Assembly: GCA_963799775.1 (NCBI GenBank)
Contig: CAWCYD010000003.1
Location: forward strand, 1,568,001-1,632,000
Direction of reading: 5' to 3'
Origin: an uncultured archaeon
GTDB taxonomy: Archaea > Thermoproteota > Nitrososphaeria > Nitrososphaerales > Gagatemarchaeaceae
DNA length: 64,000 bases
A program made the translations under genes and the position numbers. The first letter of the stretch is position 1, and each line of letters begins with the position of its first letter. The notes below the pieces were generated by a model, which was not told the origin of the DNA, did not search any database, and saw nothing but the letters and a program-made list of their open reading frames with translations. This document shows, piece by piece, positions 33,142 through 51,752 of this stretch.

Positions 33142-34362
33142 ATGAGTTCGGCAAACCCGGTCTGGCTGGGATTCACGAGGATGGGCGGGAGGTTCGTCCT
33201 CAATTCCGAAGATCTAGCAGGGGGCATCGCGGTTCTCGGGCAGGGGTCGAACGCTCTTGCCCCTCTCCTCGCTCTGGCCTGCCACGAAGCGGGCAGGAAG
33301 GTGCTGCTGCTTGACATGGAGGGAAAGGCGGCAGATGCAATCTCTGGATACATGGGAGAATTCGACGTGTCCCACTTTCTCTACGACTCGCTCAGGATCG
33401 AGGACAATCCGGTCGTCCACGCGCAACTCCTGGCCGGCGCGTATGCGACTACACTCGACCTCTCGTTCGAGCAGGAGGCCAGTCTGAACGCCTTCGCCCA
33501 GATAATAGCCAATGAGCGAGGGGTCGCCAGCCCCTCATCGGTCGCTGACCTAATCCAATCCCCAGACGCCGCCAAGGGTCGAGCGATTGACCGGCTCAGG
33601 GCGAGGCTCGAGGCCCTACGGTCCCTGAATCTTCTGGGCGAGAAGGACGCGGTCAAACAGGTTATCCAAGAGAGCGCCGTGTTGAGCTTCAAGGGTGCAG
33701 GGTCACCCGAGGCCCAAGAGACTGCCGTGGCCCTCTTCCTCGCCAAGCTGCTTGCGATTCTTGGAGGAAGTGACGAAGTGCAGGGACCAGATGTGTTCAT
33801 AGTCACCGAGGCGAACCGGCTCTTCAAGGAGAGGCCCGTCTTTAGGAAGAGCCAGCGATTCCTCACCTCGTTCGTATCATCCTCCTTGGGGAAGGTGCTC
33901 GCTTCTGACGTGGCTTACGGATTGGACAAGGACTACATGGACACGTGCGGGGTAAGGATCCTCTCGAGCGCTGCATGGAACGACTCGGGGAGGGGCGGCC
34001 TCGTCCTCACCCCCAACATGTTCATGCTCCAGAACCCCTCCTACGGCTCGAGCGAGGTCTTCATCCCGAGGGGGTTCGAGGAGAGGAAAGGCACCGCAAA
34101 GGCCCCAGCCGGTCTCGTCCCGACGGCGGACGCCGAGCTCGACCTTCGCATACTCGAGGAAGTGGCCAGCTTCAAGGACGCGACGCGCACGTCGCTGATC
34201 TCCTTCCTTGCCTCGGAGTTCGACCCAGACGTCCTTGAGAAGGCCTTCGACAGGCTCCAAGCGGAAGGATGCATCGCCGTCACGCCGCAGGAGAGATCTG
34301 GGCGAACCATCCTCTCCGTCTCGCTCACCGACAAGGGCCGCGCGATGCTGGGGAGGCGGTAG
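33142..34362 (+). CDS. Degenerate HerA/VirB4-like P-loop protein with C-terminal wHTH
   Basis: IAVLGQGSN (eroded Walker A), VLLLDMEG, FIVTEANRL (eroded Walker B), C-term LTDKGR wing. Confidence 0.5.
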   Translation: MSSANPVWLGFTRMGGRFVLNSEDLAGGIAVLGQGSNALAPLLALACHEAGRKVLLLDMEGKAADAISGYMGEFDVSHFLYDSLRIEDNPVVHAQLLAGAYATTLDLSFEQEASLNAFAQIIANERGVASPSSVADLIQSPDAAKGRAIDRLRARLEALRSLNLLGEKDAVKQVIQESAVLSFKGAGSPEAQETAVALFLAKLLAILGGSDEVQGPDVFIVTEANRLFKERPVFRKSQRFLTSFVSSSLGKVLASDVAYGLDKDYMDTCGVRILSSAAWNDSGRGGLVLTPNMFMLQNPSYGSSEVFIPRGFEERKGTAKAPAGLVPTADAELDLRILEEVASFKDATRTSLISFLASEFDPDVLEKAFDRLQAEGCIAVTPQERSGRTILSVSLTDKGRAMLGRR

Positions 34363-34364
34363 AG

Positions 34365-35400
34365 TTGATTCCTCAACTGGAAAGGCTGCAGACGGGATGC
34401 AACGCCCTCGACCTCCTGACCGACGGCGGCCTAGCGACCGGGACGATAACCCAGATCTTCGGTGAGAAGGCCCTTGGGAAGAGCATCCTCTCTTTGCAGG
34501 CCGCGTACGCCACCGTGGCCGCCGGCAGTAGCGCGATCATTCTCGACACAGAGCAGTCGTATTTCAGCTACCTCGTCGGCTACCGGAGGGCCGGGTTCGA
34601 GAAGAGGTTCGGCGACAAGGTCCAGGTGAAGGAGGTCAAGCTCGTGAGGACGACGCGAGCGGCGAAGAAGAAGGACATGCCCGTCTCTAGGAGCGAACTC
34701 GTCACCTCCGTCAGCAGCCTGCTCGACCGGATCGGGGTCGCGTACAACGACAACCACCTGAGCGCCATCGCCGATGTCCTGTCGCCGGATTTCACCGTAG
34801 ACCTCGGTGAGGAGAAGCAGGAGCCTTGCGTGATGATAATCCAGCTTCCGGACATCATCGACCTGCTCGCGCTCCACGGGCACGACGTCCAGAAGATAGT
34901 CTCGGAGAACGGGAGGGTGGAGCTGAGACTAAAGTCGACCCCGGTCTACGACTCGGCGCTGCACCAGATCGTGGAGCAGACAAAGGCCAAGCTTCTGGTG
35001 TACGACTCGATCTCCGCACCATTCAAGTCGTCTTTCTTCGGGACGCAGGACACTTCCGGCAAGGAGCGCCGGGATGGCGATAATGCTCGCCCACGCGCAG
35101 CGGCTCTGCATCCAGTTCGGGCTGGCGGTGGTCGTGACCAGCCACGCGTCCATCAACCCGATGGCCGCCTGGGACAGGGGCAAGCCCTACGGAGGGCTCA
35201 CGCTCGGGCACGAAGCGAAGTTCAGCTTCGAGCTGACCAAGCACACCGCCAAGAGGAACGGCGATGCCACCTCCGTCAACCCGCAAGAGAAGATAGACAA
35301 GGATAGGGATGGGAGGGCTTTCTGGGTGCACAGGCACCCAGCCCTCGAGGACTGGTCGAGGTACGGGCACACCTTCATCGACGACGAGGGGTTCCACTGA
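34365..35400 (+). CDS. RecA-superfamily ATPase (RadA/RadB paralog) with large insertion; frameshift near 35055
   Basis: LQTGCNALDLLTDGGL...ITQIFGEKALGKS, LDTE, LLVYDSIS, AVVVTSH, KPYGG. Confidence 0.8.
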
Positions 35401-36482
35401 TGGGCTGGCTCGGCAAGGGTCTGGCCTTTCTGCTCGCGATAATCCTCTTCGGCGTGGGGGCCTGGCCGCTCTCCCTCCTCATCTTCGCTGCACTCTTCGT
35501 TCCGCCTGTCTTCAGGTTGTGGAGGCGCAGGCCCGCGTCCCAGGAACGGAAGGGGCCTAGGCAACCATTCCAGCTCAGGTACCTCTTGGGGGGCTTCCTA
35601 TTCCTGCTGGCGGTCATTGGATTCCTGGCACATGGCACCTTCTCACCGATAGTGTTCGCGTCCCTGGGCCTGCTCGTGTTGTTCTGGGGCCGGGGTCCGA
35701 AAAGGGTGTTCGGCTCGGGGTTGAAGCCTGTCAAGGAATCCGTGATTCTCAGGTCTTCCCTGTTTCCTTACTCGTGGGCCGCTGTCGCCCAGGTCAAGCT
35801 GCTCACCCGCGACGTCGGGAGAGCGCTCGCGGGTGTGACCGGCACAGTCCTCGTGTTCTCGTCCGATACCCCTTCCATCTACCTCGTGTTCGAGAGACGC
35901 GCTGCCAGCGAGAGGGCGGCCGAGGATTCGCTCCTCTCCGCCGTCAGAGAAGCCGCCATCTCTGTGTCCGCGCTTGGAGCCTATCTTCTTCCGCTCGACT
36001 CCCAGAAGGCCGACGAGCTGCTTCAGCCCTCCCTTGAGTCTGTTTGGACAAGTGATGGCGACTGGTCCACCGCGCTCGCGTCTTCACACTACGACGTCGT
36101 CTGCATCAAACAAGACAAGGGCTTCGCGAAGTCTCTTGCCTCATACAAGAGGACTGACGAAAGGAAAAGTGGCCTGGCGAAGGTTCCCACCGCCTCCAGA
36201 GAGCTCACCCATCCCCCGTTCCTCACCGAGGTCTTCAAGGTACTGGGAAGCAGGCTCACTTGGCCTCACCCAGACCAGTATACAGCGTTCCTCAGCAGCC
36301 TGCTCGCGACTAGCAACGAGCCTATCGGGACGAGGATACTCGACGCGGGCACCGCTTCGCAGTCTCAGATGGTCCTGGTCAAGTCCCAGGGAAGCCCTTC
36401 TGTCGAGCTTAGCAGGGCGCAGCTCCGCGCAGTCGTCAAAATGTACGACCCCCGGCCCAGATCGGTTGTGACTGGAATCTAG
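35400..36482 (+). CDS. Membrane protein, N-terminal TM helices + soluble domain
   Basis: Four hydrophobic segments in first ~100 aa; translationally coupled to ATPase gene. Confidence 0.6.
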   Translation: MGWLGKGLAFLLAIILFGVGAWPLSLLIFAALFVPPVFRLWRRRPASQERKGPRQPFQLRYLLGGFLFLLAVIGFLAHGTFSPIVFASLGLLVLFWGRGPKRVFGSGLKPVKESVILRSSLFPYSWAAVAQVKLLTRDVGRALAGVTGTVLVFSSDTPSIYLVFERRAASERAAEDSLLSAVREAAISVSALGAYLLPLDSQKADELLQPSLESVWTSDGDWSTALASSHYDVVCIKQDKGFAKSLASYKRTDERKSGLAKVPTASRELTHPPFLTEVFKVLGSRLTWPHPDQYTAFLSSLLATSNEPIGTRILDAGTASQSQMVLVKSQGSPSVELSRAQLRAVVKMYDPRPRSVVTGI

Positions 36483-36514
36483 CCTTCGAAGACTATTATC
36501 GTCAGGGTTCGTCG
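36479..36514 (-). repeat. Distal relic of Lrp/AsnC gene 3' end
   Basis: Reverse strand encodes RRTLTIIVFEG* vs RSTLTMIVVEG* of the Lrp gene; 25/30 nt identical. Confidence 0.75.
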
Positions 36515-36538
36515 ACCCGCTTTCTCGAGAAGGGACTT

Positions 36539-37709
36539 TTGGATATCCTTCACAAACTATTTCCAAGCCTCTCAACGAGTTCGATTCAGTTGGGGCCTAG
36601 GAGAAGCGAGCTCGCCTTCATCATCACAGTCATGGTTGTTTTGGCATCATACGTGACGGCCTCCGAAGTACTCTCGACCGGCCCGGAATCATCTTCTGTG
36701 ATCACAACGATTAATGTCGGAGGCAGTCCAAGATATGCTGCCTTCGACCCCGCGAATGGCTACATATTCGTATGCAATGTTGGCTCCAACACGAGTCTGA
36801 AGGGAACCGTGGATGTGATCGACGGATCTTCGAATACCGTGGTGGCCAAGATCACGGTCGGAGTTTTCCCCAAATGGCTAGCTTTCGACTCGGCCAATGG
36901 AGATATCCTCGTCTCCAACTACGACTCTCATGCGATATCGGACGTAAGCGGAACATCGTGGGTCACCACTGCTACGCTCTCGCTCCCAAGCAAGGGGCCC
37001 CCGGTGCCTGAACCTGATGGAATCGCCTTCGACCCGACGAACGGGTATCTGTATGTCGTCGAGAACAACCTGGACTCTGTCATCGTGATTAACGGCGCGA
37101 ACGGCGCGGCGGTAGGTTCGCCGATACCAGTCGGCAAGGGCACCAGACGGAATAGCATTCAATCCATACACCGAGCAGATTGATGTCGCAAGTGACACAT
37201 CCCTCTCCGTGTTGAACCCGGCAAACGACTCGGTTGAGAGTTTCAAGACGCCGACCAGCTCGACCTCCCTCCCATTCACCGTCGCGGTCGACCCGTCGAC
37301 TGGGGACGTCTTTGTCGGCAATTTCGGCTCCAGTAGCGTCTACGTGTTCGGCCATTCTGGAGAGTTGGCGAACGTGACCCTAACCCAATCGCCCACCGCG
37401 ATCGCATTCGACTCGGCGACCGATGCAATGTTCGTGGCGGGCTCGAATGCCACTTTTGCGATAAATGCTCAGAACTTCGCCTTGATGGGCAAGCCGATTC
37501 CAGTCGGAAAGTCACTGCCGGATGTAAGCAATGGGGTCGCCTTCGACCTTGAGAATCACGAAATCTATGTGTCAAACGGGCTGGACGGGACCATATCAGT
37601 GATAGCCCCTGGGACGACGTCTCCTCCTCTGAGTTTTGCTCTTGTCGCCGTACCGATAATCTTCGTCGCCGTGCTGGCCGGCGTCGTGGTCTACCGACGC
37701 ATCGATTAG
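36539..37709 (+). CDS. YVTN/YncE beta-propeller surface protein with C-terminal TM (frameshift near 37140)
   Basis: Repeated P..IAFDPxNG.IYV.N...VSVI..T.VG units. Confidence 0.8.
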
Positions 37710-37732
37710 AGAGCCAGGGAGCCCTGATTCGG

Positions 37733-37768
37733 CTAGCCTTCGACCAAGATCATCGTGAGAGTGCTCCT
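37733..37768 (-). repeat. Relic of Lrp/AsnC gene 3' end
   Basis: 30/36 nt identical to 38287-38322; encodes RSTLTMILVEG*. Confidence 0.85.
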
Positions 37769-37775
37769 TCGAGAC

Positions 37776-37994
37776 TCAATCCATGAGTTCGAGGAATTGC
37801 TTCTTGGTCAGGCCCGCTTGCTCGACGATGGACAGAAGGGTCCCTCGCTTGATCTCATTCATCCGCGGTACCGCAACAAATCTTCCCTCTTGATTTTCGA
37901 CGATGATGTGGCTTCCCTTCTGTCTCACTGGCTTGAACCCAACCTTGGAGAGCGTTTTCAGCACCTCCCTCCAGTTGAGAACAGGAAGTGCCAT
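37776..37994 (-). CDS. hicA: HicA toxin
   Basis: REVLKTLSKVGF...RQKGSHII...VP...EIKRGTLLSI. Confidence 0.9.
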   Translation of the reverse strand: MALPVLNWREVLKTLSKVGFKPVRQKGSHIIVENQEGRFVAVPRMNEIKRGTLLSIVEQAGLTKKQFLELMD

Positions 37995-37997
37995 ACC

Positions 37998-38246
37998 TTA
38001 GACTACGACTTCGACTAGTTCCGCGTTCTTGGACACTTCCCTCTCCTTGAGGTGCTCAAGAACCAATTCGATTGCCTCCTTGATGTTGACGAGGGCTTCT
38101 TTCCTCGTCTCGCCCTGGCTGATGGCCTGGGGAAGTTCGAGGCATTGGACCGAGTAGCCGCCTTCCTCCTCCGGTTCCAATATGACGGTGAAGCGTCGAC
38201 CGCCGCGGACGGCTACTCGCTTGGACATGCGTGGAGTTCGGGCCAC
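37998..38246 (-). CDS. hicB: HicB antitoxin
   Basis: FTVILEPEEEGGYSV...LP.AISQGETRKEALVNIKEAI. Confidence 0.9.
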   Translation of the reverse strand: MARTPRMSKRVAVRGGRRFTVILEPEEEGGYSVQCLELPQAISQGETRKEALVNIKEAIELVLEHLKEREVSKNAELVEVVV

Positions 38247-38286
38247 GCTTCACTATTAAGCCTAACGTGGTTCTATCGTGGATTGC

Positions 38287-38520
38287 TTACCCTTCGACGA
38301 CGATCATCGTCAGGGTGCTCCTGACGCGGTCGAGCCTGCGTATCTTCCAAGTGATGGTCTCCTTGACCTTCTCCATGGTGTCGGCCTCGACCCGAGCTAT
38401 GATATCATAAACGCCGTACACAACATAGACGTCCTTCACAAACTCTAATCCCCTTAGGGATTTCAGAAGCTCCTCCTCAGCGCCTAAATCAGCATTTATT
38501 AAAACGAACGCCATCGGCAA
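38287..38520 (-). CDS. Stand-alone Lrp/AsnC ligand-binding (RAM) domain protein
   Basis: AFVLIN...VYGVYDIIARVEA...IRRLDRVRSTLTMIV. Confidence 0.9.
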   Translation of the reverse strand: MPMAFVLINADLGAEEELLKSLRGLEFVKDVYVVYGVYDIIARVEADTMEKVKETITWKIRRLDRVRSTLTMIVVEG

Positions 38521-38679
38521 TTGTCGAATCTCTGCCTCTCGCATTACTATGGTGATGAGCGGTAATAACCATTGCTACTTGCGTTGCTAAAACGAAAGCC
38601 AAGGGCATTTTTGCGTTCGTCACCATTTAGCCGAACTCGGTATAAAGAGTTCATTTCCCACCTTACCGCGTAAGATCCG

Positions 38680-39357
38680 ATGAAGCGCGGAGAAGCAGCC
38701 TTTGCAACCATCCAGCTCATCATCTTCGCTGCCGTTCTGACCCTCGTGGCCCTGCCGGCCTTGAATGCTCCGTTCGTCCCGCGCTCTTTCGTCGCGACCA
38801 CGACAACCCCGTCAACCCAGGGTCTCGTCCTTACTCTCACCCTCAACTCGACCAGCCTGAAGAGCGGGCAGGGAATCAAGGCCACGGTCGAAGAGGTGAA
38901 TACGCTCCGCCAGACCAACAACGTGTCCGCCTCTGACAACTGGCCCTTGAAGAGCGCGACAGAGATACGGGGGACGACGCTGAACGATGGTGATTGCGGC
39001 CCAATCAACTTCCCCATGGGTTTGGAAATCGTCAGCGGATATTACACAAAAGACAACGCCTCGACGGCGCATCCACTCGAGCTCTACGGGTTTGGGTTGA
39101 CCAGTTGTCCTGCGGTCCTCAGCGAGATAGACCAATACAGCTTCCAGGCATCGAGCGAGAACGCGAGCATCATCGGAAGCTGCGACCCCAATCCGTGCTT
39201 TGCATACGGAATGACTGCCTCGGTGAGCGCCCGTGGCTCTTGGACGAGCTTCCTGGTCTTTGGTCCCAGCTTCGCGAACTTTGGCCCTGGCGTGTACACG
39301 GTTATTGCCGGAGACGAGTGGGGCGCCCTCGCCTTCACGTACTTTGACGTCGAATAG
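38680..39357 (+). CDS. Secreted/anchored protein with GDEWG-motif Ig-like domain
   Basis: Leader MKRGEAAF..LVALP; LTLNST...WP...C...CP...GVYTVIAGDEWG. Confidence 0.7.
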   Translation: MKRGEAAFATIQLIIFAAVLTLVALPALNAPFVPRSFVATTTTPSTQGLVLTLTLNSTSLKSGQGIKATVEEVNTLRQTNNVSASDNWPLKSATEIRGTTLNDGDCGPINFPMGLEIVSGYYTKDNASTAHPLELYGFGLTSCPAVLSEIDQYSFQASSENASIIGSCDPNPCFAYGMTASVSARGSWTSFLVFGPSFANFGPGVYTVIAGDEWGALAFTYFDVE

Positions 39358-39406
39358 GTCGCCGCCTACGCAGTTCTTCTCATGGGGATTACCGCTGACC
39401 CGCCTA

Positions 39407-40567
39407 TTAGGGCAAGGGGCAGTTCTGTCCCGAGCCAACAAGAGCTGTGTCCACGTACCCGGGGCCAGCGGAGTCATGGAAGGCTATGAATTCCGAGGGC
39501 AGGGTCACCAACAGCTCGTTCATCAAACCATTGTAAGCCACGAACTGAGGTGTGCCCGGGAGCGAGTACATATCGAGCAGAGCCCCTGTCGCCCCGTCGT
39601 AGATGAACGTGTAGTTGAAGTCGAGAGAAATCGCTGCTATTTGGTCCGTGTTCTGAACGTAAGCCATGCTGTCGAACGGGCCGCACTCCTGCGGATTGAC
39701 CTTGAAGACCACCTGCCCATTGGTCGCGTTGATAGCGGCCAAAGTGTCGCCCGACACGTAGAAGAGGTGGTGTACCGTGTTGACGGCGACCCTGGGATAA
39801 CTCCCTCCTCCGAGCGTTACGTTGGCAACGAGGCTATTGCTCGTGCCATTAACAATGTACGCTACAGAGTCGCAGACAAAGCTGCCGACACACCCTGCCC
39901 CGATAATCATGTTCGTGCTCGGGTCGACGGCGATGGAGTCTGGCGAGTGTGGAAGGGGCACTCTCGCAACCACAGAACCCGTCTGGACGTTGATTCCCGT
40001 CAGCGTGCCATTGGCCGAACCGTAGAGGACGTGTGTGACCTGGTCGTACGCGAGGGTTCCATACCCGAGGGCCGGATGGAGCTCCCCCACAATCTGGTCA
40101 GTTGTGCCGTTGATCTCCACAACTCCGCCATCGACCGATACATAGACCATGTGGGTCTGCCAATCCGTTGCGATCCCGTTCTCGCTCCCCGCCGGGAGCT
40201 GAATGCTGGCCAGCACTTTGTGCGCGTAGCCGTTCACGACTGTGAGGTTCTTCGAGGACCACCCAGCGATGTAGATCTCGTCGGGGTTGGGATCCAGCCC
40301 GATTGTGCGGGGCTGCTGCCCTCCCAGCGTGATGTTGAAGGTCTCAAGGCTTGAAGCGGGAAACGGCGGACCTAGGGATACCGTGGCGGTAGCTGTGCTC
40401 AAAGTTGTCGTCTGTATAGACAAGACTGTAGAGACGCTCGTGAGAGTCGAAACTGAAGTCGCAGTCACGGTAGCGGTTTGGCGGGAGCCTGACCCGACGA
40501 AATAGCCAACTCCAAGGCCTGTTGCGACCAGAATCACGAGGACAATCGCAACAATATCATTTCTCAT
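39407..40567 (-). CDS. YncE-like beta-propeller surface protein
   Basis: N-term TM, T-rich linker, repeated IAVD...VYV...ING.T units. Confidence 0.75.
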   Translation of the reverse strand: MRNDIVAIVLVILVATGLGVGYFVGSGSRQTATVTATSVSTLTSVSTVLSIQTTTLSTATATVSLGPPFPASSLETFNITLGGQQPRTIGLDPNPDEIYIAGWSSKNLTVVNGYAHKVLASIQLPAGSENGIATDWQTHMVYVSVDGGVVEINGTTDQIVGELHPALGYGTLAYDQVTHVLYGSANGTLTGINVQTGSVVARVPLPHSPDSIAVDPSTNMIIGAGCVGSFVCDSVAYIVNGTSNSLVANVTLGGGSYPRVAVNTVHHLFYVSGDTLAAINATNGQVVFKVNPQECGPFDSMAYVQNTDQIAAISLDFNYTFIYDGATGALLDMYSLPGTPQFVAYNGLMNELLVTLPSEFIAFHDSAGPGYVDTALVGSGQNCPLP

Positions 40568-43634: not shown

Positions 43635-44832
43635 TTGCCCAGTCGAAACACTTTCGGTTACGCCGCAATTCTCGCCGCTGCGATAGCGTGTGTTCTTGCC
43701 CTCGACCTTGTGGTCTTCCCCGTCTACCTGCCGCCGGTTGGCCCAAGCCAAACGTCGACGGGCGAGGCTAATGCCCAGCTCGGCTTACGCCTCACCCTCT
43801 CGCTGAACTCTACGAGGGTCGCATTCGGTGGACGCATCCAGATTGGCGTCGAGGAGCGGAACACCCTCTCGCGAGAGTGAACAACGTCACGGCCGCCGAT
43901 GACTGGCCGGCTGTGGGGCTTGACCTGGCCGCCGGGCCGAGGTCGATCTGCCCGGAGAGGGACGACATGGGGATAATCATCTACGAGGGTCCGCTAGACT
44001 TTGGAAACGTGTCCAGCGTGACCGGGGAGCAGATTGCGCCTGAAGGGGGTGCGTCATGCCCTTTTGTGCCGGGAATAATCTACTCGTACCAGTTTCAGGC
44101 CTCGAGCGACAACGCCACGGAGGCGTATGGCTGCAAGCCGGGCGCTTCTAACTCATCCGGGCCCGGCACGTCCTGTAGCTGCGTCCCTAGATCCTGTTCC
44201 CCTTTGGGCGTGAAGCCGGCGTTGACACAGAAGACCCTCGTCGTAAGAGGCTACTATGTCAATTTCACCACCCTCCACGCTTTTGCACCTGGTGAGTACT
44301 CGTGGTCGCGGGAGACGAATGGGGCGACGTCGCAATAGCTCACTTCACGGTCACGAGCCCGGGCTGCAAGACCTTGGACGATTCGCTGCCGTTTCCGGCA
44401 CTCCAGGAGAGAACCATCGGGGTCATCAACGAGCCAGGGGCCTGGGCATTCACTGCGAGTCTGGACAGCGCGGTGGGCTTTTTTGGAAGGAACGTGACAA
44501 TAAGCGCCAGCCTGGTGAACGTTGGGAACACATCTGAGAAGATCGAGCTCGTGGTTCCCATAATCGCACGTCTTCAGGTGCTCCGGAGTGATGGGAGCGC
44601 GGCTTGGACCTACGCCGCTCCATCACCCTTTCCATTACCCTTTTCGCCTAGTCTCTCCCTGGAGGATGTCACTCCCGACCAGCGGTTCAGCGATTCGGTT
44701 GGAATCCCCACCTCGCAGTTGCAACTCGGACAGAACTATACCGTGGTGGTTAGCCCGACATTCTTCGCCTCGCCGCCGTCAGCTCCCATCTCCTCCGGCT
44801 TGGGAATCACCTTCCCGCTGATGATCTGTTAA
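43635..44832 (+). CDS. Secreted/anchored GDEWG-domain protein with extra Ig-like domain (frameshifts near 43875 and 44320)
   Basis: TM, LTLSLNST, NNVTAADDWP, VAGDEWG across three frames. Confidence 0.65.
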
Positions 44833-44902
44833 GGGTTCATTGCTCCTCCGCTTGCGCGTTTCATCCGCACGTTGGACTACAGTTATGGCTTGGGCATAAT
44901 CC

Positions 44903-45910
44903 TTAGGCGGACTTGGACACTGGCCCAACCACCCATACTACAAAGGAAGCTGAACAGTAGACCTCACCGTTCGAAGGCTCGACCATGAGTACGCCAAAGA
45001 TGTTCCCCACGATTGGATCACGAATCGTCGCGATCGGCGTGTTCGTGCTACCCGATATGACCACGATTGAAGACACAATTGTGGAGTTAGTCCGCTCGCT
45101 CGTCGATACGTAAAGATCTCCTGTGGCATTGTCGAACGCGAGGGCTGAGGGCGAGCCACCGAGTGCTATCGTCCCGTCGGCAGAATTGGTCGAACCTGAG
45201 ATGACAAAGATGCTGTCGTCATACATCGTGCTCAGGACATAGATGTTGCCGTTCGACGGATCCAGCACTGGTGTCTTGGGCGCGTACCCGACCGTAAGGT
45301 TGGCGATGACAGAGTTGGTTTGACCGGAAACCACAGAGACAAAACCGCGTGTCCAGCCGATACAACCATTGCAAGTAGGGAAGCCCGCACCATAGTCTGG
45401 CACGTAGATATCTCCGTTAAGAGGGTCGAATAATGGCGTAGCAGGATTTAGACCTACTTGCAAATCGGCAACTATCTCGTTTGTGGATCCTGATATCACT
45501 GATAGAGTGCCCCCGGGCGAAACACCGCGATTGGAACTGTTACCGAGATGAGGCACGTAGATGTCACCATTCGTCGGGTCGAGTGTAGGGGTGGCGTCTT
45601 CCTGGCCGAGCTGCATGGTTGAGACAAGTGCATTAGTCGTCCCAGATATTATTGAGATGGCATTGACGTCGGGCACATACAGGTCACCGTTGAGCGGATC
45701 AAACAACGGAGTCAAGGGCTCGATGCCAACTTCAATCCTGGCGCCGTCAACTCGTAGAGACCTGTCGCTGCGACCACGATGAGCAGAGTGCAAACGAACG
45801 CGAGAGATGCTGATTGTATGGCATGCCTGTGACGCTTCGCTAGCCAATCCAAGACCCTCTACACGTTCGAGCGTAATGGTCTGCGGGTCTATTTCAAGTC
45901 GCCGAATCAA
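44903..45910 (-). CDS. YVTN beta-propeller protein (5' end uncertain)
   Basis: Repeated TPLFDPLNGDIYVP...VISG.TN units; no clear signal peptide. Confidence 0.7.
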   Translation of the reverse strand: MIRRLEIDPQTITLERVEGLGLASEASQACHTISISRVRLHSAHRGRSDRSLRVDGARIEVGIEPLTPLFDPLNGDLYVPDVNAISIISGTTNALVSTMQLGQEDATPTLDPTNGDIYVPHLGNSSNRGVSPGGTLSVISGSTNEIVADLQVGLNPATPLFDPLNGDIYVPDYGAGFPTCNGCIGWTRGFVSVVSGQTNSVIANLTVGYAPKTPVLDPSNGNIYVLSTMYDDSIFVISGSTNSADGTIALGGSPSALAFDNATGDLYVSTSERTNSTIVSSIVVISGSTNTPIATIRDPIVGNIFGVLMVEPSNGEVYCSASFVVWVVGPVSKSA

Positions 45911-45996
45911 TCCTTCGGGTCAGCGTCCGCTAGCCGGCTGAAAATGCGAGCGTTCGCCGAACAAAGGGTTCATTGCGCCTCCCGATTCTATTCGCC

Positions 45997-46587
45997 TTAG
46001 GGGGTGAAGGCGCCCAGGAACGCGAGACATCCGTAGTCTGTCCCATTGACGGTCTCCGTGGTGTATCCTATGCAACCATACACGCTCTGTCCCACTACCG
46101 GGGCTTTCACTCCGCCGAATTTCTGGGAGAAGATGGCCGTGAAGTTCGTGATGGTCCCAGTTGCTGTAATACTGGAGATGTAATACGAGGGAGAGCTCGT
46201 GCAGCTCGTGGCGGCACCACCACCGAAATTGTTCCCCGAACCGTAGGTCAGATCGACGCAATCCAGGCCCTTGTCGAGAGTAGTGCCGATGTCCGATGGC
46301 TGGTCTATGTTCGTGATTAGAAAGGTGCAGGTGTCGTTGCTGATACTGCACCCGGTTAGGTCAACACCCTTGGTCGGGCCGATGAACTCGTTGGAGAATT
46401 CGCCCGCGCCCGTTGGCTGCGAGGTCGTCGTTGTCACAATCGTGCTCGTCAGGTAGCTCGTCTGGAACAGGGTGGTTGTGGAGGTGGACGTCTCGGTGCG
46501 GACTGTGGAGGTGCCTGCAAAATATCCAACGCCAAGGCTCACCACTAGGAGGACTGTCACTGAAAGTGCAAGTAACTCGCGCTTCAA
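45997..46587 (-). CDS. Secreted/anchored T-rich, Cys-containing protein
   Basis: TM LGVGYFAG (like 39407..40567), T-rich linker, six Cys. Confidence 0.65.
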   Translation of the reverse strand: MKRELLALSVTVLLVVSLGVGYFAGTSTVRTETSTSTTTLFQTSYLTSTIVTTTTSQPTGAGEFSNEFIGPTKGVDLTGCSISNDTCTFLITNIDQPSDIGTTLDKGLDCVDLTYGSGNNFGGGAATSCTSSPSYYISSITATGTITNFTAIFSQKFGGVKAPVVGQSVYGCIGYTTETVNGTDYGCLAFLGAFTP

Positions 46588-46701
46588 CTCGAATCGAGAG
46601 AGGCCCGCCTTCCTATTGAAGGCTAGGGAGGAATCCTCTCGCGCGTGGGGGCAAATTGCCGCCATGCATATGGGTTCATTGCGCCTCCGTCGGGGATTGC
46701 G

Positions 46702-47781
46702 CTAGGGGCAGGTCGATGACAAGTAAGCAATCGTGACGTTCGTCCTCCCTGAAGGAAGATATAGGCTCGCGCACGTCGTCGAGAGCGGGGAAAGGCCCGC
46801 CGTCAACGTGTAGCTCTGGCCTGAGTATTTGACGAGGATTGAATATCCCCCGATGTTGTAGGTTCCCAATGAGTACCACTCTCGGCCTCCTGATGTAGTG
46901 AAGTATTGGGACTGTGGCTGACCGCATGGCTGTCCATTGACCGAGTCGGGGTGGGTGGTCGCATTCACCATCGCTCCCACCACAGGCGTCTGGTTCGAGT
47001 CCCAGATGACTCGGAGGTCGAAGCCGTCGGCCTGGCCTGTGATGACGCACTGCTCTGATGTCGAGGTCGTCTGCAGTGGAGACGTGGAGGAGGAGGATTC
47101 GGGAGTCGTACCGGGACCCAGTGTGAAGTTGGCTTCCAGCACTGAAGCCGAGCCCGTGCCGTCACCCGCGGCCAAGCTATAGTTCCCCGCTGTCACTGCG
47201 CCCATCCCCACCGTGACTACGCCTCCACTTTCGCCCGGCGCGGCAGTGTTCCAATCGGTTTCGCACGAGTCTCCAGTCGGAGACGGCGTCCCCGGCGCTC
47301 CCAGGGCGATGCATGGAGCCGTCTGGAGGACTAGGCTTCCAGTTGAGTTGGTAATCGTGAATGCCACCGTGTCGCTGTCGTAGAGTGATGCCGCCAAGCA
47401 GACGTCATCCCCGACCTTTGCGTTGGTAGAGACGTACAGCATCCCCTGCGAGTTCGAAGCCACCAGAGCGCAATCGCAGCCTGGCCATCCGGTCTCAGTG
47501 ACGGTGTAGGACGAGTTGCCTGTGTGGCCGGGGGAAGGAGCGCACTCTGACGAACTGACAGATTGAGACGAATTGGACCCAGTGAGGAACGTGCTTGTCG
47601 ACTGTGAGGTGGACGGAGAGGAGCTGATGGTGCTCGCCGGCCCGCCCGGATTAGTGTACGAGAAGTAGGAGTAAGTTGCCCCGGCGACCACGATCGCTGT
47701 AATCACCAGGAGGACCATGGCTGTCCGCTGGATTGCTACTCTTCGAGGCAACGCGCAATCGCTCTTTTCTTGAGGCGTCAT
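46702..47781 (-). CDS. Secreted/anchored two-domain S/T-rich protein
   Basis: Class III-like leader RRVA-IQRTAMVLLV, S/T linkers, paired Cys. Confidence 0.65.
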   Translation of the reverse strand: MTPQEKSDCALPRRVAIQRTAMVLLVITAIVVAGATYSYFSYTNPGGPASTISSSPSTSQSTSTFLTGSNSSQSVSSSECAPSPGHTGNSSYTVTETGWPGCDCALVASNSQGMLYVSTNAKVGDDVCLAASLYDSDTVAFTITNSTGSLVLQTAPCIALGAPGTPSPTGDSCETDWNTAAPGESGGVVTVGMGAVTAGNYSLAAGDGTGSASVLEANFTLGPGTTPESSSSTSPLQTTSTSEQCVITGQADGFDLRVIWDSNQTPVVGAMVNATTHPDSVNGQPCGQPQSQYFTTSGGREWYSLGTYNIGGYSILVKYSGQSYTLTAGLSPLSTTCASLYLPSGRTNVTIAYLSSTCP

Positions 47782-47879
47782 TCGTGATATACTTTTGTCC
47801 GAACGTTACAGCTCACGCTAGCTTATCGAAAATGCGGGCATTCGCCGAGCATAGGGTTCATCGCGCCTCCGCCGGAGAT

Positions 47880-48341
47880 TCACGACGGTCTCGCAGCGAT
47901 GCCGTCTGCACAAATCTGTGAGTGAGGCGCAGGGTCGCTCGAACCCGAATGCACGCCCGACTCAGGGCTTCCCCGTCTTTGGTAGAGGAAGATGGCTCCC
48001 AGAGCAAGAGCGAAGCCAACAAGCCAGACGAGGATAATCCCAGGTCCCACAGGGACGTGGAGGAGCCCGAAGAGCTCGGGCGAGCAACGCCCACCGATCC
48101 CGGTAACGAGACTCGTGCTCGTGTAGTTGGCCGGGTAGGTACCCGAAACAGTCCCTCTGCCGACGGTGCTCGACCAAACGCAGACGTACCCGAACGAGGT
48201 CGTGACGGTGGTCGTCCCCGTGATGGTCCCGGCCACGGGAAAGAAATCGACGACCCCTCTCGGGGCGAGGCTCATCACGAAGAGCACGTAGAGCACGGCG
48301 AAGACGGCCACGACGATGCTTAGGCTGGGAAGGAGCCTCAA
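47880..48341 (-). CDS. Two-TM membrane protein
   Basis: N- and C-terminal TM with T-rich loop. Confidence 0.5.
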   Translation of the reverse strand: MRLLPSLSIVVAVFAVLYVLFVMSLAPRGVVDFFPVAGTITGTTTVTTSFGYVCVWSSTVGRGTVSGTYPANYTSTSLVTGIGGRCSPELFGLLHVPVGPGIILVWLVGFALALGAIFLYQRRGSPESGVHSGSSDPAPHSQICADGIAARPS

Positions 48342-48422
48342 GTGTCAGCTTCTATGTTCTAGAGAACCTCCAGGGCTTTATCCCATTCGTCGCAGTCACA
48401 GTGGTAATGGTGGGCTTTCCTC

Positions 48423-49361
48423 CTATGAGAGGACGGTAATCTCGAGCAGGACATTCATGTCGCACGTGAAGAAGAACTGCAGAGTCACACTTCCGTTGAA
48501 GAGGGAGACTGGTCCCTGACCGAAGTCGGGAGGCCAGCTCTGGCCATTCCAAGCTCCAAGGTTGGTGTAATTTGCAACCTGTGTCGTTTGCCCGTTTGAG
48601 ACGTGCAGAAAGACCTGAGGCCAAAGGTAGACGACCTGAGGAGTGTTGGAGTAGGCGACCGCCCTGACCGCGTACCCTCCCACGCTTACCGACGTGCCAT
48701 TCCATTGCCAAGAGTTGAACTGGGCAGTCACGTTGAGGACTGAGACAGCCTTGGTTGTGGAACTCGAGTTGGAAGGCGCTTGGCCCGAATAGCAGGTTGA
48801 GGTTTGGACCGTGCTGCTTGGGGGAACAATCTGAACCTGCACCGTATAGGAGAACTGCGTTCCGTTCACGAGGGTTCCACTGATCGTAAGAGGATATTCG
48901 AGGCTGCTGTCAATTGAATAGCCGATCAAAGTACGCGTTTCCTGGATGCTTTGGCCAAGCAGGAGGGGATTCGACGAGTTCACGTTGAACACGAAGGATT
49001 ACGGGACGGACGGTCCTCCGGGAAGCCTTGGTAGGGTCGCGTTCAGAGAGGTGATTGGAGTCTCGCCCGTATTCTTCAAGGATATGCTGATTACCGGCCC
49101 TCCCGGATTGGGGGGCGGGATCGGACCCGTTACCGAAACGACCTGGACGGGGCCATTGGATGTAGTCACCGTCTGGGTATTGTTCTCAGAGACATTCGTG
49201 ACTGTTCCAGAAGTGGTCGTCTCACAGCAGAGAATTGTGGTCTGAGAAGTCGCGGAAGGTGATGACGTCACGGCAAGGTAACCCGCTGCAACAGCGGCCA
49301 CGATTATGACGGCCACGAAAGCGACTGCGGCCCCCGCAACTGCTTTCCGGTTCCGAGCCAT
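48423..49361 (-). CDS. Secreted/anchored protein (frameshift near 49000)
   Basis: RNRKA-VAGAAVAF leader; VQVVSVTGP...SLKNTG joins F.VNSSNPLL frame. Confidence 0.6.
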
Positions 49362-49561
49362 GCAAAGTCGATGATGAACACGCCAACGCGCCATTAGTAC
49401 TTTTGTCCGAACGCTCCAGCTCTAGCTGGATTCGAGAAAATGCGGGCTGGACCATGCATAAGGGTTCAGTGCGCCTTCGCCGGTGAAAGTTCCAGAAGGC
49501 GTATCTATCCCGGGAGCAGGCAAAGCGGTGATGCTGATGGTAGGATCTCGACTTTCATTGG

Positions 49562-50071
49562 ATGGCTAGGGTCTCAACTTTGGAACTTACCCTTCAGGAT
49601 TACTTGGTCTGGCTGAAGAGACTCTCCGTATTGGGGATGTTCGGTGGTTACATCATCGGAAGACTGCCTCCCCCGCCCCTCACGTGCAACAATCCTCAGG
49701 TAATCAACGGACAACCTTTCTGCATGTATAGTGGGCCCGTCATCCCGCCCATAACCGCTGTCGTAGGAATCCCGATGCTCTTGCTCTCGGCTTTCGGGCT
49801 TGCCTCCTTCTTCCTGATCAGGCAGATCGCCCCCGGCGAAACGGGAGGTGCGATGAGCAGTATCTGGCTCGTGCTTGCCGTGGCTATCATGCTGCCGCTT
49901 ACGGTATTCACTTACGAGGAACAGGCGACACTCGCGTGGTTCGGGACACCGCTCACACCGCTGACTGTGGGAATCGGAGTACCAATCATTGCTTGCTCGG
50001 TCTTCAGGTTCGTCAGGCCCTACAAGGTCAAGTGGACACCCGAAGCTAACGAGAGTGAACTATTCGCCTAG
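49562..50071 (+). CDS. Multi-TM membrane protein
   Basis: Four hydrophobic segments. Confidence 0.55.
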   Translation: MARVSTLELTLQDYLVWLKRLSVLGMFGGYIIGRLPPPPLTCNNPQVINGQPFCMYSGPVIPPITAVVGIPMLLLSAFGLASFFLIRQIAPGETGGAMSSIWLVLAVAIMLPLTVFTYEEQATLAWFGTPLTPLTVGIGVPIIACSVFRFVRPYKVKWTPEANESELFA

Positions 50072-50171
50072 GTCTCTCTCGTCGCTTGCTTGTGGCAGCC
50101 TTCGTCGTGAAATGGGTTCATTGCGCCTCCGCCGGGCATTTCATTCACTCGTTGGGCAAACGGTTCTCCCA

Positions 50172-50402
50172 TCAATCGAGCAAGTCTAGGAATTGCTCAA
50201 CGGTAAATCCAGCCTCACTGATTATCGCTCTTAGGGTTCCTCGGGGAATCTCATCATAGTTCGGAATGGCAATCCTGCGATGGGGCGGCTCTTCGCGCCT
50301 GAGAACTATGTGGCTTCCCTTTTGATGGTCGAACCTGTAGCCAATCTTCGATAATGCTTTGACGACTTCCTTTGCCGAAAGAATCGGAAGCTTCCTAGGC
50401 AT
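50172..50402 (-). CDS. hicA: HicA toxin
   Basis: SAKEVVKALSKIGY...QKGSHIVL...IP...EIPRGTLRAI. Confidence 0.9.
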   Translation of the reverse strand: MPRKLPILSAKEVVKALSKIGYRFDHQKGSHIVLRREEPPHRRIAIPNYDEIPRGTLRAIISEAGFTVEQFLDLLD

Positions 50403-50634
50403 TCATTTCAACTGTCACGATTTCCTCGTTTATCGGAGGCGGAACAGGCTCGTTATGCTTCTGCAAGCTTTCGATGTAAGCTTGGATTGCCTCTTTGATG
50501 TTCTTCAGTGCCTCGGCCCTCGTCGACCCGGAAGAGATGCAGCCTGGCAGCTCGGGGACTCTCGCAGTGAACTTGCCATCCTCGTCCTGTTCGATCAGGG
50601 TCCGATACCGCAGTTTGAGTTTCCGCGAAGCCAT
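50395..50634 (-). CDS. hicB: HicB antitoxin
   Basis: EQDEDGKFTARVPELPGCISSGSTRAEALKNIKEAI. Confidence 0.9.
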   Translation of the reverse strand: MASRKLKLRYRTLIEQDEDGKFTARVPELPGCISSGSTRAEALKNIKEAIQAYIESLQKHNEPVPPPINEEIVTVEMNA

Positions 50635-50786
50635 GCGGAGGAACGGAGCTCTGTCGCTCGATATAACTATCTCGGCGGTCGGTGTGGAGTGACCAAGACG
50701 AGGGAAGCTTAGCCGCCGTGCTAAGAAGGTTCATTGCGCCTCCGCCGGGGCGCTGATTGCTTGACCCTCACGAGTTCGAGCCTTTC

Positions 50787-51752
50787 TCATCCGCCGACCA
50801 AGCCGACGCCCGGCGGTCGCTGCACAACCGGTCCGTCGGTCCTTTCAAGATCGTCGAAGAGGTTGAGCAGCATCCTTCCCATGGGTGTCACCTCGTAGAG
50901 CCTGACCGTCCCGTAGGCCGACTGCTCCCTGACGAAGCCGTACTTGTTGAGCGTCTGCATGTGCCTGTCCACGGTCTTCCAGTCGACCCCCAGTTCCTCT
51001 GCCAATTGGAGCCTGTCCTTGGGGGTGCTCAGCGTGTTGAGGAGCCTGATCCTGGTGGCCCCGCCCTTCATCTTCATGAAGAGCTCGAAGACGTCCGACC
51101 CGAACCCCATCTCGCTGTATCGCGCCCTCACCCGGCCCCTCCAGACCCAGGCCCCGCCCACGAGGACCCACGTCACGGGGGCCACGAAGAGCGAGGCGGA
51201 TTGCACCTCCCTCAAGAGCGATGCGCCTTCGGTGGTTGAGATGGCGGCGAGAGCAGCCGAGTTCTGGGAACTGGTGGTCGCGCCGCCGAAAGTGTAGCCG
51301 GCCCCGCCGGTAGAGGTCGAGACGGCTCCTGCTGCGGAGGAAGCTGTGACCGTCGTTACCGGCCCCGCCGGGGCGTTTACAACAGCGGTGGTCGTGGATG
51401 TGGAGGTAATCGTTGACGTCGCAGTTGTCGTGATACTCGAGGTCACGACGGTCGTGGTTGACTCGGTAGCTGGGCTGGACACTGTGCTCGATAGAGCAGA
51501 GGAACCCCCGGCCGACTGCCCGGCGGCGGTCGAGGTCGCTGTCGAGACCGAAGAGCTTGCTTTGGTCGATGAAGCCTGCGCCGCGGCTGAGGATGAGATG
51601 CTTGAGGACGATGTGGGCGCTTCGGAATTCGAGGCCGCGGAATTCAGTGCCGGGACGGCGGATTGAGAAGTGACAAGACCCCACCCTGCCAGTAATGAGG
51701 TCCCTGCCGCAACGAATAGCAAAGCGGCGAAGGCGGCCGCAAACTTGTTCAA
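50787..51752 (-). CDS. Membrane-tethered regulator: N-term TM, extracellular S/T-rich region, second TM, cytoplasmic ArsR-like wHTH
   Basis: GGATRIRLL...DRLQLAEELGVDWKTVDRHMQTL...GFV...LYEVT. Confidence 0.8.
   Translation of the reverse strand: MNKFAAAFAALLFVAAGTSLLAGWGLVTSQSAVPALNSAASNSEAPTSSSSISSSAAAQASSTKASSSVSTATSTAAGQSAGGSSALSSTVSSPATESTTTVVTSSITTTATSTITSTSTTTAVVNAPAGPVTTVTASSAAGAVSTSTGGAGYTFGGATTSSQNSAALAAISTTEGASLLREVQSASLFVAPVTWVLVGGAWVWRGRVRARYSEMGFGSDVFELFMKMKGGATRIRLLNTLSTPKDRLQLAEELGVDWKTVDRHMQTLNKYGFVREQSAYGTVRLYEVTPMGRMLLNLFDDLERTDGPVVQRPPGVGLVGG

Follow-up and report, generated by a model that had tools for sequence, protein, structure and literature searches.

Integrons gather genes at a fixed platform, in small cassettes that mostly hold a single gene and encode no recombinase themselves; toxin-antitoxin (TA) pairs are among these cassettes, the newest of them lies next to the platform, and a repeat stands between one cassette and the next. 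The pdif/Xer modules are likewise small and integrase-less, often consist of TA pairs, and have short sites and a recombinase encoded elsewhere; their sites occur in alternating orientation and do not belong to a gene. In this study, we describe an array of small cassettes in a 64,000-nt stretch of DNA from an uncultured archaeon of the family Gagatemarchaeaceae (GenBank assembly GCA_963799775.1, contig CAWCYD010000003.1, positions 1,568,001 to 1,632,000 of the forward strand; hereafter the window, meaning the whole stretch analyzed), in which copies of the 3' end of a gene for a RAM-domain protein separate the cassettes. Comparison with related genomes and soil metagenomes shows an accretion array, which has grown by insertion into the end of the gene and displacement of older ends.

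Accumulation of elements at gene ends has been described in bacteria and archaea. Among streptococcal islands of integrative and conjugative elements (ICEs) and integrative and mobilizable elements (IMEs), a review presents cis-mobilizable elements (CIMEs) as att-flanked remnants without integrase, and incoming elements accrete at an att copy that holds the gene end (PMC5704250). In the tycheposon islands of Prochlorococcus, according to a preprint, incoming elements push older ones inward and partial tRNA copies separate the units (bioRxiv 10.1101/2020.12.28.424599). A survey of thaumarchaeal integrated elements reports that 14 protein-coding genes, among them that for an AsnC-family regulator, are targeted in their 3'-distal regions, that in one case the element supplies an alternative stop codon, and that att sites are re-used in tandem (PMC6563490).

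The array resembles the CIMEs in that direct repeats of the target end flank each unit, entry is at a copy of the gene end, and integrase-less units persist. However, the CIMEs are described as decayed ICEs or IMEs beside an integrase-bearing partner (PMC5704250), whereas no such partner was found in the 65 sequences scanned here; moreover, the present units are mostly 0.3-1.8 kb and the host is archaeal. With the tycheposons, the array shares entry at a conserved gene 3' end, displacement of older units, partial target copies between units, and the accumulation of remnants. In contrast, tycheposons target tRNA genes and carry replication genes together with recombinases of the tyrosine or serine type, and the greater part of the island DNA is not in discrete units (10.1101/2020.12.28.424599). 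The thaumarchaeal integrated elements occur in the same phylum and use the same kind of target, but they are kilobase-scale, carry integrases or casposases, and have short att sites with a median of 17 bp (PMC6563490). The AsnC-family target of that survey may be the RAM-domain gene studied here; no copy of the gene end was found within 19 kb downstream of the three RAM-domain genes examined in genome G038.

As in integrons, a platform is combined with small recombinase-less cassettes, of which the newest would lie next to the platform, and the array may be likened to the integron as a way of gathering foreign genes. However, the window encodes no IntI-type tyrosine recombinase, and of the five tyrosine recombinases encoded in the genome the nearest (PF00589) is ~221 kb from the gene. 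In addition, the repeat is a copy of the end of a coding gene and not a folded attC, and the cassettes are not co-oriented, with 53 of 82 cassette open reading frames (ORFs) opposing the platform gene. The likeness to pdif/Xer modules lies in small integrase-less units, often TA pairs, bounded by short sites, whereas the copies in the present arrays are all direct and form the end of the gene itself. Our literature search gave no description of integrase-less cassette arrays at the end of a protein-coding gene in archaea, and therefore the form of this structure, a tandem accretion at a gene end made only of minimal integrase-less cassettes in soil Thaumarchaeota, appears to be new as far as that search reached.

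Gene-end integration and tandem accretion are already known, and an array solely of tiny integrase-less cassettes is less familiar. The one described here has a protein-coding gene as its anchor, occurs widely in soil populations, and leaves its mark on that gene, the 3' third of which is homogenized at synonymous sites. It offers a concrete and testable case in which uncultured soil archaea would trade TA modules and surface or secreted proteins, and a short, defined DNA site (~31 nt) that could be used as bait for the responsible recombinase. It also carries a warning for annotation, as the "pseudo-ends" of genes in these genomes mark the borders of cassettes.

The target gene and the copies of its 3' end

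The target gene (38287..38544, minus strand) encodes an 85-aa stand-alone RAM-domain protein. Its sole domain match was PF01037 (Lrp/AsnC ligand-binding, RAM; E 1.8e-11) at residues 15-84 of 85, with no helix-turn-helix (HTH), and therefore "Lrp gene" is loose wording. The label "Lrp/AsnC gene" given by a first-pass annotation of the window thus holds for the RAM domain and fails for the N-terminal HTH of Lrp/AsnC regulators, which is absent.

The last 11 codons and stop of this gene (RSTLTMIVVEG and stop; 38287-38322, 36 nt, minus strand) recur twice on the same strand, at 37733-37768 (RSTLTMILVEG and stop; relic 1) and at 36479-36514 (RRTLTIIVFEG and stop; relic 2), as the first-pass annotation had reported and as the sequence, its translation, a repeat search, and a genome profile all bear out. 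Relic 1 is identical to the live end at 30 of 36 nt, with an ungapped homology of ~33 nt. The six differences agree with the earlier count of four that are synonymous or stop-to-stop: ACC>ACT, CTG>CTC, and GGG>GGC are synonymous, TAA>TAG exchanges one stop for another, and GTC>TTG comprises two changes that replace V by L. Relic 2, the outermost copy, is identical at 27 of 36 nt and differs at nine. The repeat search of the window grouped the three end copies as one direct family, and a degenerate 26-nt pattern had exactly three matches in the window and none in 100 shuffles. Additionally, a gene-end profile searched against the 2.47-Mb genome gave only these three copies as significant matches (E 2e-14, 1e-9, and 3e-9), the next best having an E of 0.007.

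The copies bracket a hicBA module and a YVTN-propeller gene, in agreement with the earlier description, although the propeller gene turned out to be frameshifted. Cassette 1 (37769..38286, 518 nt, minus strand) holds hicB (37998..38246) and hicA (37776..37994), both co-directional with the target gene. HicA matched PF07927 (E 7.7e-18, 64.8 bits, cut-off 27) and the HicB-like protein PF15919 (E 2.5e-6, 28.1 bits, cut-off 27); HicA adjoins its HicB-like antitoxin in the same direction, as in HicAB type II TA systems. Cassette 2 (36515..37732, ~1.2 kb, plus strand) carries the gene for a YVTN-type beta-propeller protein, convergent with the target gene and frameshifted near 37150-37210; when compared with relatives (L030), the two resulting ORFs (36539..37183 and 37209..37709) match single genes in one reading frame.

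The outer edge of the array is formed by a conserved convergent gene (35400..36482, plus strand) that encodes 360 aa without a Pfam family and closes a conserved block in which a RadA/KaiC-like ATPase is also encoded. As pointed out before, the distal copy and this neighbor have CTAG in common at their stops, TAG at 36480-36482 for the neighbor and the complement of 36479-36481 for relic 2. In the flank upstream of relic 2, we also found an 11-nt identity (TTTGTGAAGGA, minus strand) between 36545-36560 and 38432-38447, the latter at codons 34-38 in the live gene. This identity keeps the frame of the relic; it may be due to chance or may remain from a longer relic that suffered an internal deletion.

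Relics, empty sites and replaced gene ends

The RAM-domain gene was present in all 41 relatives searched, its orthologues having 72-98% aa identity, and a homologue of the convergent neighbor in 20 of the 41. The surroundings of the gene from 29 other genomes were scanned for end copies together with the window, giving 30 genomes. Clear same-strand downstream relics were identified in five of them: the genome of the window (G000; two relics), G011 (five and one partial), G018 (two), G017 (one), and G006 (three). Weak relic candidates occurred in G003 (E 0.008) and G004 (E 0.001), and a single gene-end copy each in G020, G008, G022, and G021; no relics were seen in the more distant genomes, where 1.8 to 14 kb of downstream sequence was scanned. 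Furthermore, an exact-pattern scan of soil metagenomes, with the pattern placed in codons 67-76, retrieved 58 contigs (median 2.7 kb), 22 of which held at least two copies and 7 at least three, with a maximum of five. The 65 sequences scanned contained 115 copies in total, namely 43 full genes, 69 relics, and 3 copies cut by contig ends. The copies were always direct (none of the 65 sequences had copies on both strands), and the arrays held up to six of them, in G011 the full gene and five relics, with the partial relic there as a sixth relic.

Empty sites were found in contigs L090, L099, and L106, where a single full gene lies 14-15 nt from the aligned end of the neighbor; the corresponding distance in G020 is 231 nt, also measured from the aligned end. 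Relatives in which the gene directly abuts the neighbor thus exist. The terminal relic of L086, L087, L096, and the window is followed by the same flank as these three empty sites, as expected from the earlier proposal that the most distal copy marks the ancestral junction. In G008 (L032 5432-6191), where the two flanks are the same, an inversion affects only the RAM-domain gene, which is thereby co-directional with the 35400 homologue; homology to the window is confined to this gene and some 40-60 nt upstream of it.

We also mapped on the region the Logan contigs from a single soil study, which had a small share of words and, as contigs, are unable to show circles or excision. They include pieces identical to the window, one of which spans the junction of relic 1 (37645-37809). 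Several different sequences join the gene exactly at its stop (loose ends 38286 and 38291), and short relic-like pieces diverge at 38325-38328, with one contig reaching back 93 nt.

The homology of the relics to the live gene has a constant 3' limit at the stop codon, downstream of which the sequence differs by cassette. The 5' limit is variable, with ungapped lengths of 9-141 nt (minimum values for relics with indels), a mode of 31 nt, some relics of 22-23 nt, and most of 20-58 nt. In total, 62 of the 69 relics are no longer than 58 nt, and the longest covers 141 of 231+ nt. The last ~31 nt of the live gene are therefore the core common to most relics and resemble an attL end. Unrelated cassettes repeatedly have their 5' limits at 31, 39, and 44-48 nt, at least five of them sharing exactly 31 nt, and the limit is mostly common to the members of one cassette family across arrays and positions; the sequence directly upstream of a relic is in each case part of the cassette. 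A stop codon is kept at the homologous position in 57 of 69 relics. Variation within the relics is lowest in GTCGA, located 5-9 nt before the stop (0-2 mismatches in 58), and relics further out tend weakly to carry more mismatches (Spearman 0.26, p 0.02, 77 non-independent copies). A second full gene or a second N-terminal half was found in none of the arrays of the 65 sequences; the upstream remnants named in the first-pass annotation as the sign of whole-gene duplication and decay were accordingly not encountered, apart from the unexplained 11-nt identity noted above.

The type of stop codon goes with the downstream cassette family, independent of the preceding sequence. In front of one cassette family, K, the stop is TGA in all four close members and TAA in two divergent ones; in front of DUF7310 cassettes it is TAG in five of six, the other having TGG. 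The ancestral flank is preceded by TAG in five of five cases, the start of a block encoding a HerA-like ATPase by TAG in two of three (one CAG), and two further families by TGA in three of four (one CGA) and three of three. Similarly, a synonymous variant 4 nt before the stop tracks the downstream cassette, whereas a variant 13 nt before the stop does not, and the live gene is intact in every array. These results indicate that the target gene is made whole again by the end that the incoming element brings along. Together with the empty sites, the cassette-linked stop codons support the earlier claim that the module brings the replacement end and that older ends are pushed outward.

The relics also carry alleles of coding ends. 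When 58 unique relics were compared with the consensus, mismatches numbered 33 of 735 at first, 27 of 748 at second, and 92 of 772 at third codon positions. The third-position excess is due mainly to two sites, 13 and 4 nt before the stop (32 and 14 of 58), and the same two sites are polymorphic among live genes (0.62 and 0.19), indicating shared coding-end alleles and not a general synonymous bias. An alignment of relic ends with the alleles of other strains thus gave the same synonymous variants. Therefore, of the earlier argument that a synonymous bias shows each end to have once coded, the conclusion is retained in the form of these alleles, while little codon bias is left beyond the two polymorphic sites.

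The 3' part of the live gene is homogenized at synonymous sites. Among nine close genomes, third-position identity was 0.50 in codons 1-39 vs 0.83 in codons 40-77, and among 42 unique full genes it was 0.46-0.59 in codons 1-40 vs 0.80-0.90 in codons 47-77, a result that is free of selection only for codons 47-66, since the contigs were selected by a pattern in codons 67-76. The 5' halves are saturated at synonymous sites across strains whose last ~31 codons (38287..38382 with the stop in the window, minus strand) are nearly identical. Four genomes without clear relics (G021, G004, G012, and G024; G004 with a weak candidate only) have many synonymous differences in the same 3' stretch. Dual coding was rejected as the cause of the synonymous conservation, as the frame of the neighbor ends ~9 nt before the gene at the empty site of L099.

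Fifty complete cassettes (42 unique) were delimited, of which 46 are 325-1795 nt long and four are 5.1-6.8 kb, two of these four being the same stretch of G006 fetched twice. No recombinase family was identified among 81 window ORFs, 61 array or flank ORFs of relatives, 44 cassette ORFs, and 75 contig ORFs of at least 200 aa. The description of the units as small modules without integrase thus extends to the arrays of all 65 sequences. Cassettes of family K occupy the first position in G017, the third in G011, and the second on L104, with different neighbors on both sides; therefore, they entered several arrays independently, or the arrays have been reshuffled.

A genome-wide gene-end scan of 3090 ORFs revealed four genes with two relic-like ends downstream and none with two in the upstream control. 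The gene for an ATP-dependent DNA ligase (589 aa; G000:C3:497246..499015) is followed by two 42-nt relic ends 424 and 815 nt downstream (G000:C3:496395-497290; locus L137 11396-12291), each a copy of the last 14 codons and stop, with 5 and 6 nt differences that are mostly synonymous. The ligase-end motif was found in G000 only, that is, in 1 of 26 genomes searched. A 594-aa gene without a Pfam family (C3:969673..971457; region C3:967160-969723, locus L138) has relic ends 534 and 2477 nt downstream, each followed by TGA. In the fourth gene (C2:226494..227531), the last 30 nt are repeated exactly at +143 and +320.

Possible routes of cassette entry

The comparison shows that small cassettes, each with one gene or one TA pair and without a recombinase of its own, have entered one at a time in the last ~20-60 nt of the RAM-domain gene. 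An incoming cassette brings a copy of the 3' end of the gene, stop included, and a crossover within the shared stretch leaves the gene intact with the end of the cassette and displaces the previous end to the far side as a relic. As new cassettes enter next to the gene, the oldest relic still lies on the original junction with the convergent neighbor. Most likely, the exchange is site-specific, and a recombinase whose gene lies at another place in the genome or on a helper element would use the last ~31 nt of the gene as its attachment site. This enzyme is the part of the explanation that we infer, and the chances that a site-specific recombinase acting in trans joined the array seem to us evenly balanced. 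The cassettes could then be the archaeal counterpart of integrase-less att-flanked islands such as CIMEs, or of integron cassettes.

Site-specific exchange is favored because the relic limits are short and clustered and whole-gene duplicates are absent. It is also favored because the least variable motif, GTCGA, lies between the linked variant at 4 nt and the unlinked variant at 13 nt. The crossover would probably fall in the last dozen bases before the stop, and an exchange stretch of 6-8 nt is expected within GTCGTCGA before the stop; this mapping from linked variants is a hint only.

Several points weigh against this proposal. None of the recombinases could be tied to the site, and circular cassettes or excision products were not seen (0 of 58 metagenome contigs were circular, this sample consisting of contigs only). 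The genome contains no further significant copy of the core that might serve as an episomal attP, and a viral contig collection gave no exact match to it. The dyad symmetry of the core is only weak, and the two relics of the window fold as single-stranded DNA no better than shuffles (z +0.7 and +1.0), whereas the live end does fold (z -2.3); the relics lend no support to an attC-like folded site. A 7-mer search at cassette starts and ends gave motifs of two cargo gene families only and no common arm site. The relic lengths, being ungapped, are lower bounds in L086 and L096, where relics have indels, and partial linkage of variants by distance from the stop is also expected from homologous crossovers. 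In addition, at least two other genes with unrelated ends have the same relic pattern, and therefore several recombinases or a sequence-blind mechanism would be needed. Many cassette ORFs have no Pfam match, so that a novel recombinase family might be encoded among them.

A sequence-blind mechanism is available in host homologous recombination, through which the same accretion array could have arisen. Recombination between the direct repeats of a donor array would release a circle with one gene-end copy and a cassette, and this circle, once transferred, would enter the highly conserved gene end of a recipient by a Campbell-type single crossover, and frequent exchange would keep this end identical across strains, hence making it a good landing pad. 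The absence of an integrase anywhere in the arrays, the spread of relic 5' limits from about 20 to 141 nt, and the weakening of linkage to the cassette downstream as one moves away from the stop all agree with this route, as does the recurrence of the pattern at the unrelated ends of the DNA ligase and the 594-aa gene. The homogenized part of the gene 3' end, about 93 nt, exceeds most relics in length and could readily result from conversion, and a homology limit at the stop is expected from divergent donors because intergenic DNA is not conserved. However, most relics, with a mode of 31 nt and some of 22-23 nt, are very short for RadA-type exchange, and their limits cluster at 31, 39, and 44-48 nt across unrelated cassettes. 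Moreover, random fragment ends should yield many long relics and whole-gene duplicates, whereas two full genes occurred together in none of the 65 sequences. On balance, we regard homologous recombination as a somewhat unlikely but serious source of the array.

It is improbable that the array consists of classical integrase-bearing elements (proviruses, plasmids, or cryptic elements) that integrated in tandem and were later trimmed by deletion, leaving cassettes that are now immobile. Precedents exist, since the thaumarchaeal survey places elements in 3'-distal parts of genes that encode proteins, including that of an AsnC-family regulator, with tandem att re-use (PMC6563490), and att-flanked remnants followed by accretion are described for bacteria (PMC5704250). 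The 6.8-kb block of G006, which encodes a HerA-like ATPase and other proteins and lies between two relics, also fits such an origin. In contrast, neither an intact nor a fragmentary integrase was detected in the 65 sequences, the 46 of 50 complete cassettes at 325-1795 nt hold whole genes and not debris, and the limits within a cassette family stay the same from one array or position to another. A casposon or transposon with target-site duplication was rejected as well, as relic lengths of 9-141 nt are not fixed and neither Cas1 nor a transposase was found inside cassettes; inverted repeats at cassette ends were not sought systematically.

That the copies arose without any insertion, as leftovers of whole-gene tandem duplication or as a recurrent short motif such as a terminator or binding site, is hardly credible: the 11-nt identity between the flank of relic 2 and codons 34-38 and the folding of the live end would fit it, but no relic exceeds 141 nt, no second N-terminal half occurs in the arrays, 57 of 69 relics keep the stop together with coding-end alleles, the window relics do not fold and no Rfam family matches 35000-39500, and the empty sites, with exactly the same outer junction, and the cassette-specific limits contradict it.

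The accretion of cassettes by recombination may not be confined to this gene. It is possible, and we put it forward tentatively, that soil Thaumarchaeota of this genus capture genes in an integron-like manner without a dedicated platform integrase, with the ends of a few very conserved genes (the RAM-domain gene and, in this genome, also DNA ligase and another gene) as landing pads. A recombinase in trans or host recombination would shuffle single-gene cassettes, each with a spare gene end, between strains, and the steady exchange would keep the DNA of the pad identical among strains that have diverged elsewhere. If true, integron-like capture would be a main route of gene flow in this lineage, which is not known to have plasmids or viruses.

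Cassette cargo and other features of the region

The cassettes carry whole genes, either TA pairs or single secreted proteins or proteins of unknown function. Besides HicAB, the cargo includes two PIN/VapC modules, ParE with a small partner, DUF7310 coiled-coil proteins, beta-propeller and beta-helix proteins, a family of 240-360-aa proteins without a Pfam match, and a ribbon-helix-helix protein that is repeatedly paired with a retropepsin-like protein of 130 aa. In this last pair, the ribbon-helix-helix gene is followed by that for the ~130-aa protein, with a weak match to gag-asp_proteas (E about 1e-4), at L029 6340-7067, L096 1517-2240, L087 66-838, and L134 6067-6441; it may represent an undescribed TA-like pair. 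The window gene 38680..39357, beside the target gene, belongs to the 240-360-aa family that is also found as cargo. One DDE transposase is encoded beside the array of L086.

A conserved 6.5-kb block was identified downstream of the gene in G006 (L067 6244-12778), G022 (L033 6347-12845), and G021 (L047 8326-13317). Among its products are a HerA-like ATPase of ~980 aa, a protein of 764 aa, and a DUF1286/YdjM membrane protein. The block lies between two relics in G006, where the cassette measures 6.8 kb, and is without relics in G022 and G021.

The gene content of the window is archaeal, with genes for an A-type ATPase, TFIIE, and TiaS. The RadA/KaiC-like ATPase of the conserved block (34269-35400) appears in two overlapping frames (34269..35306 and 35074..35400), whereas relatives have one ORF of 342-366 aa; the split could be either a frameshift near 35050-35075 or a sequencing error. 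Additionally, a core of ~22-29 nt (minus strand, CCGGCGGAGGCGCAATGAACCC) occurs seven times in direct orientation at 44831-50753 of the window, with a spacing of 613-1608 nt; this is probably the first of the accretion arrays of the first-pass annotation. The copies begin 34 nt downstream of the stop of the gene 50787..51752 (minus strand) and enclose small ORFs, including hicA (50172..50402), and the core reads like a ribosome-binding site followed by ATG AAC CC rather than like a gene end.

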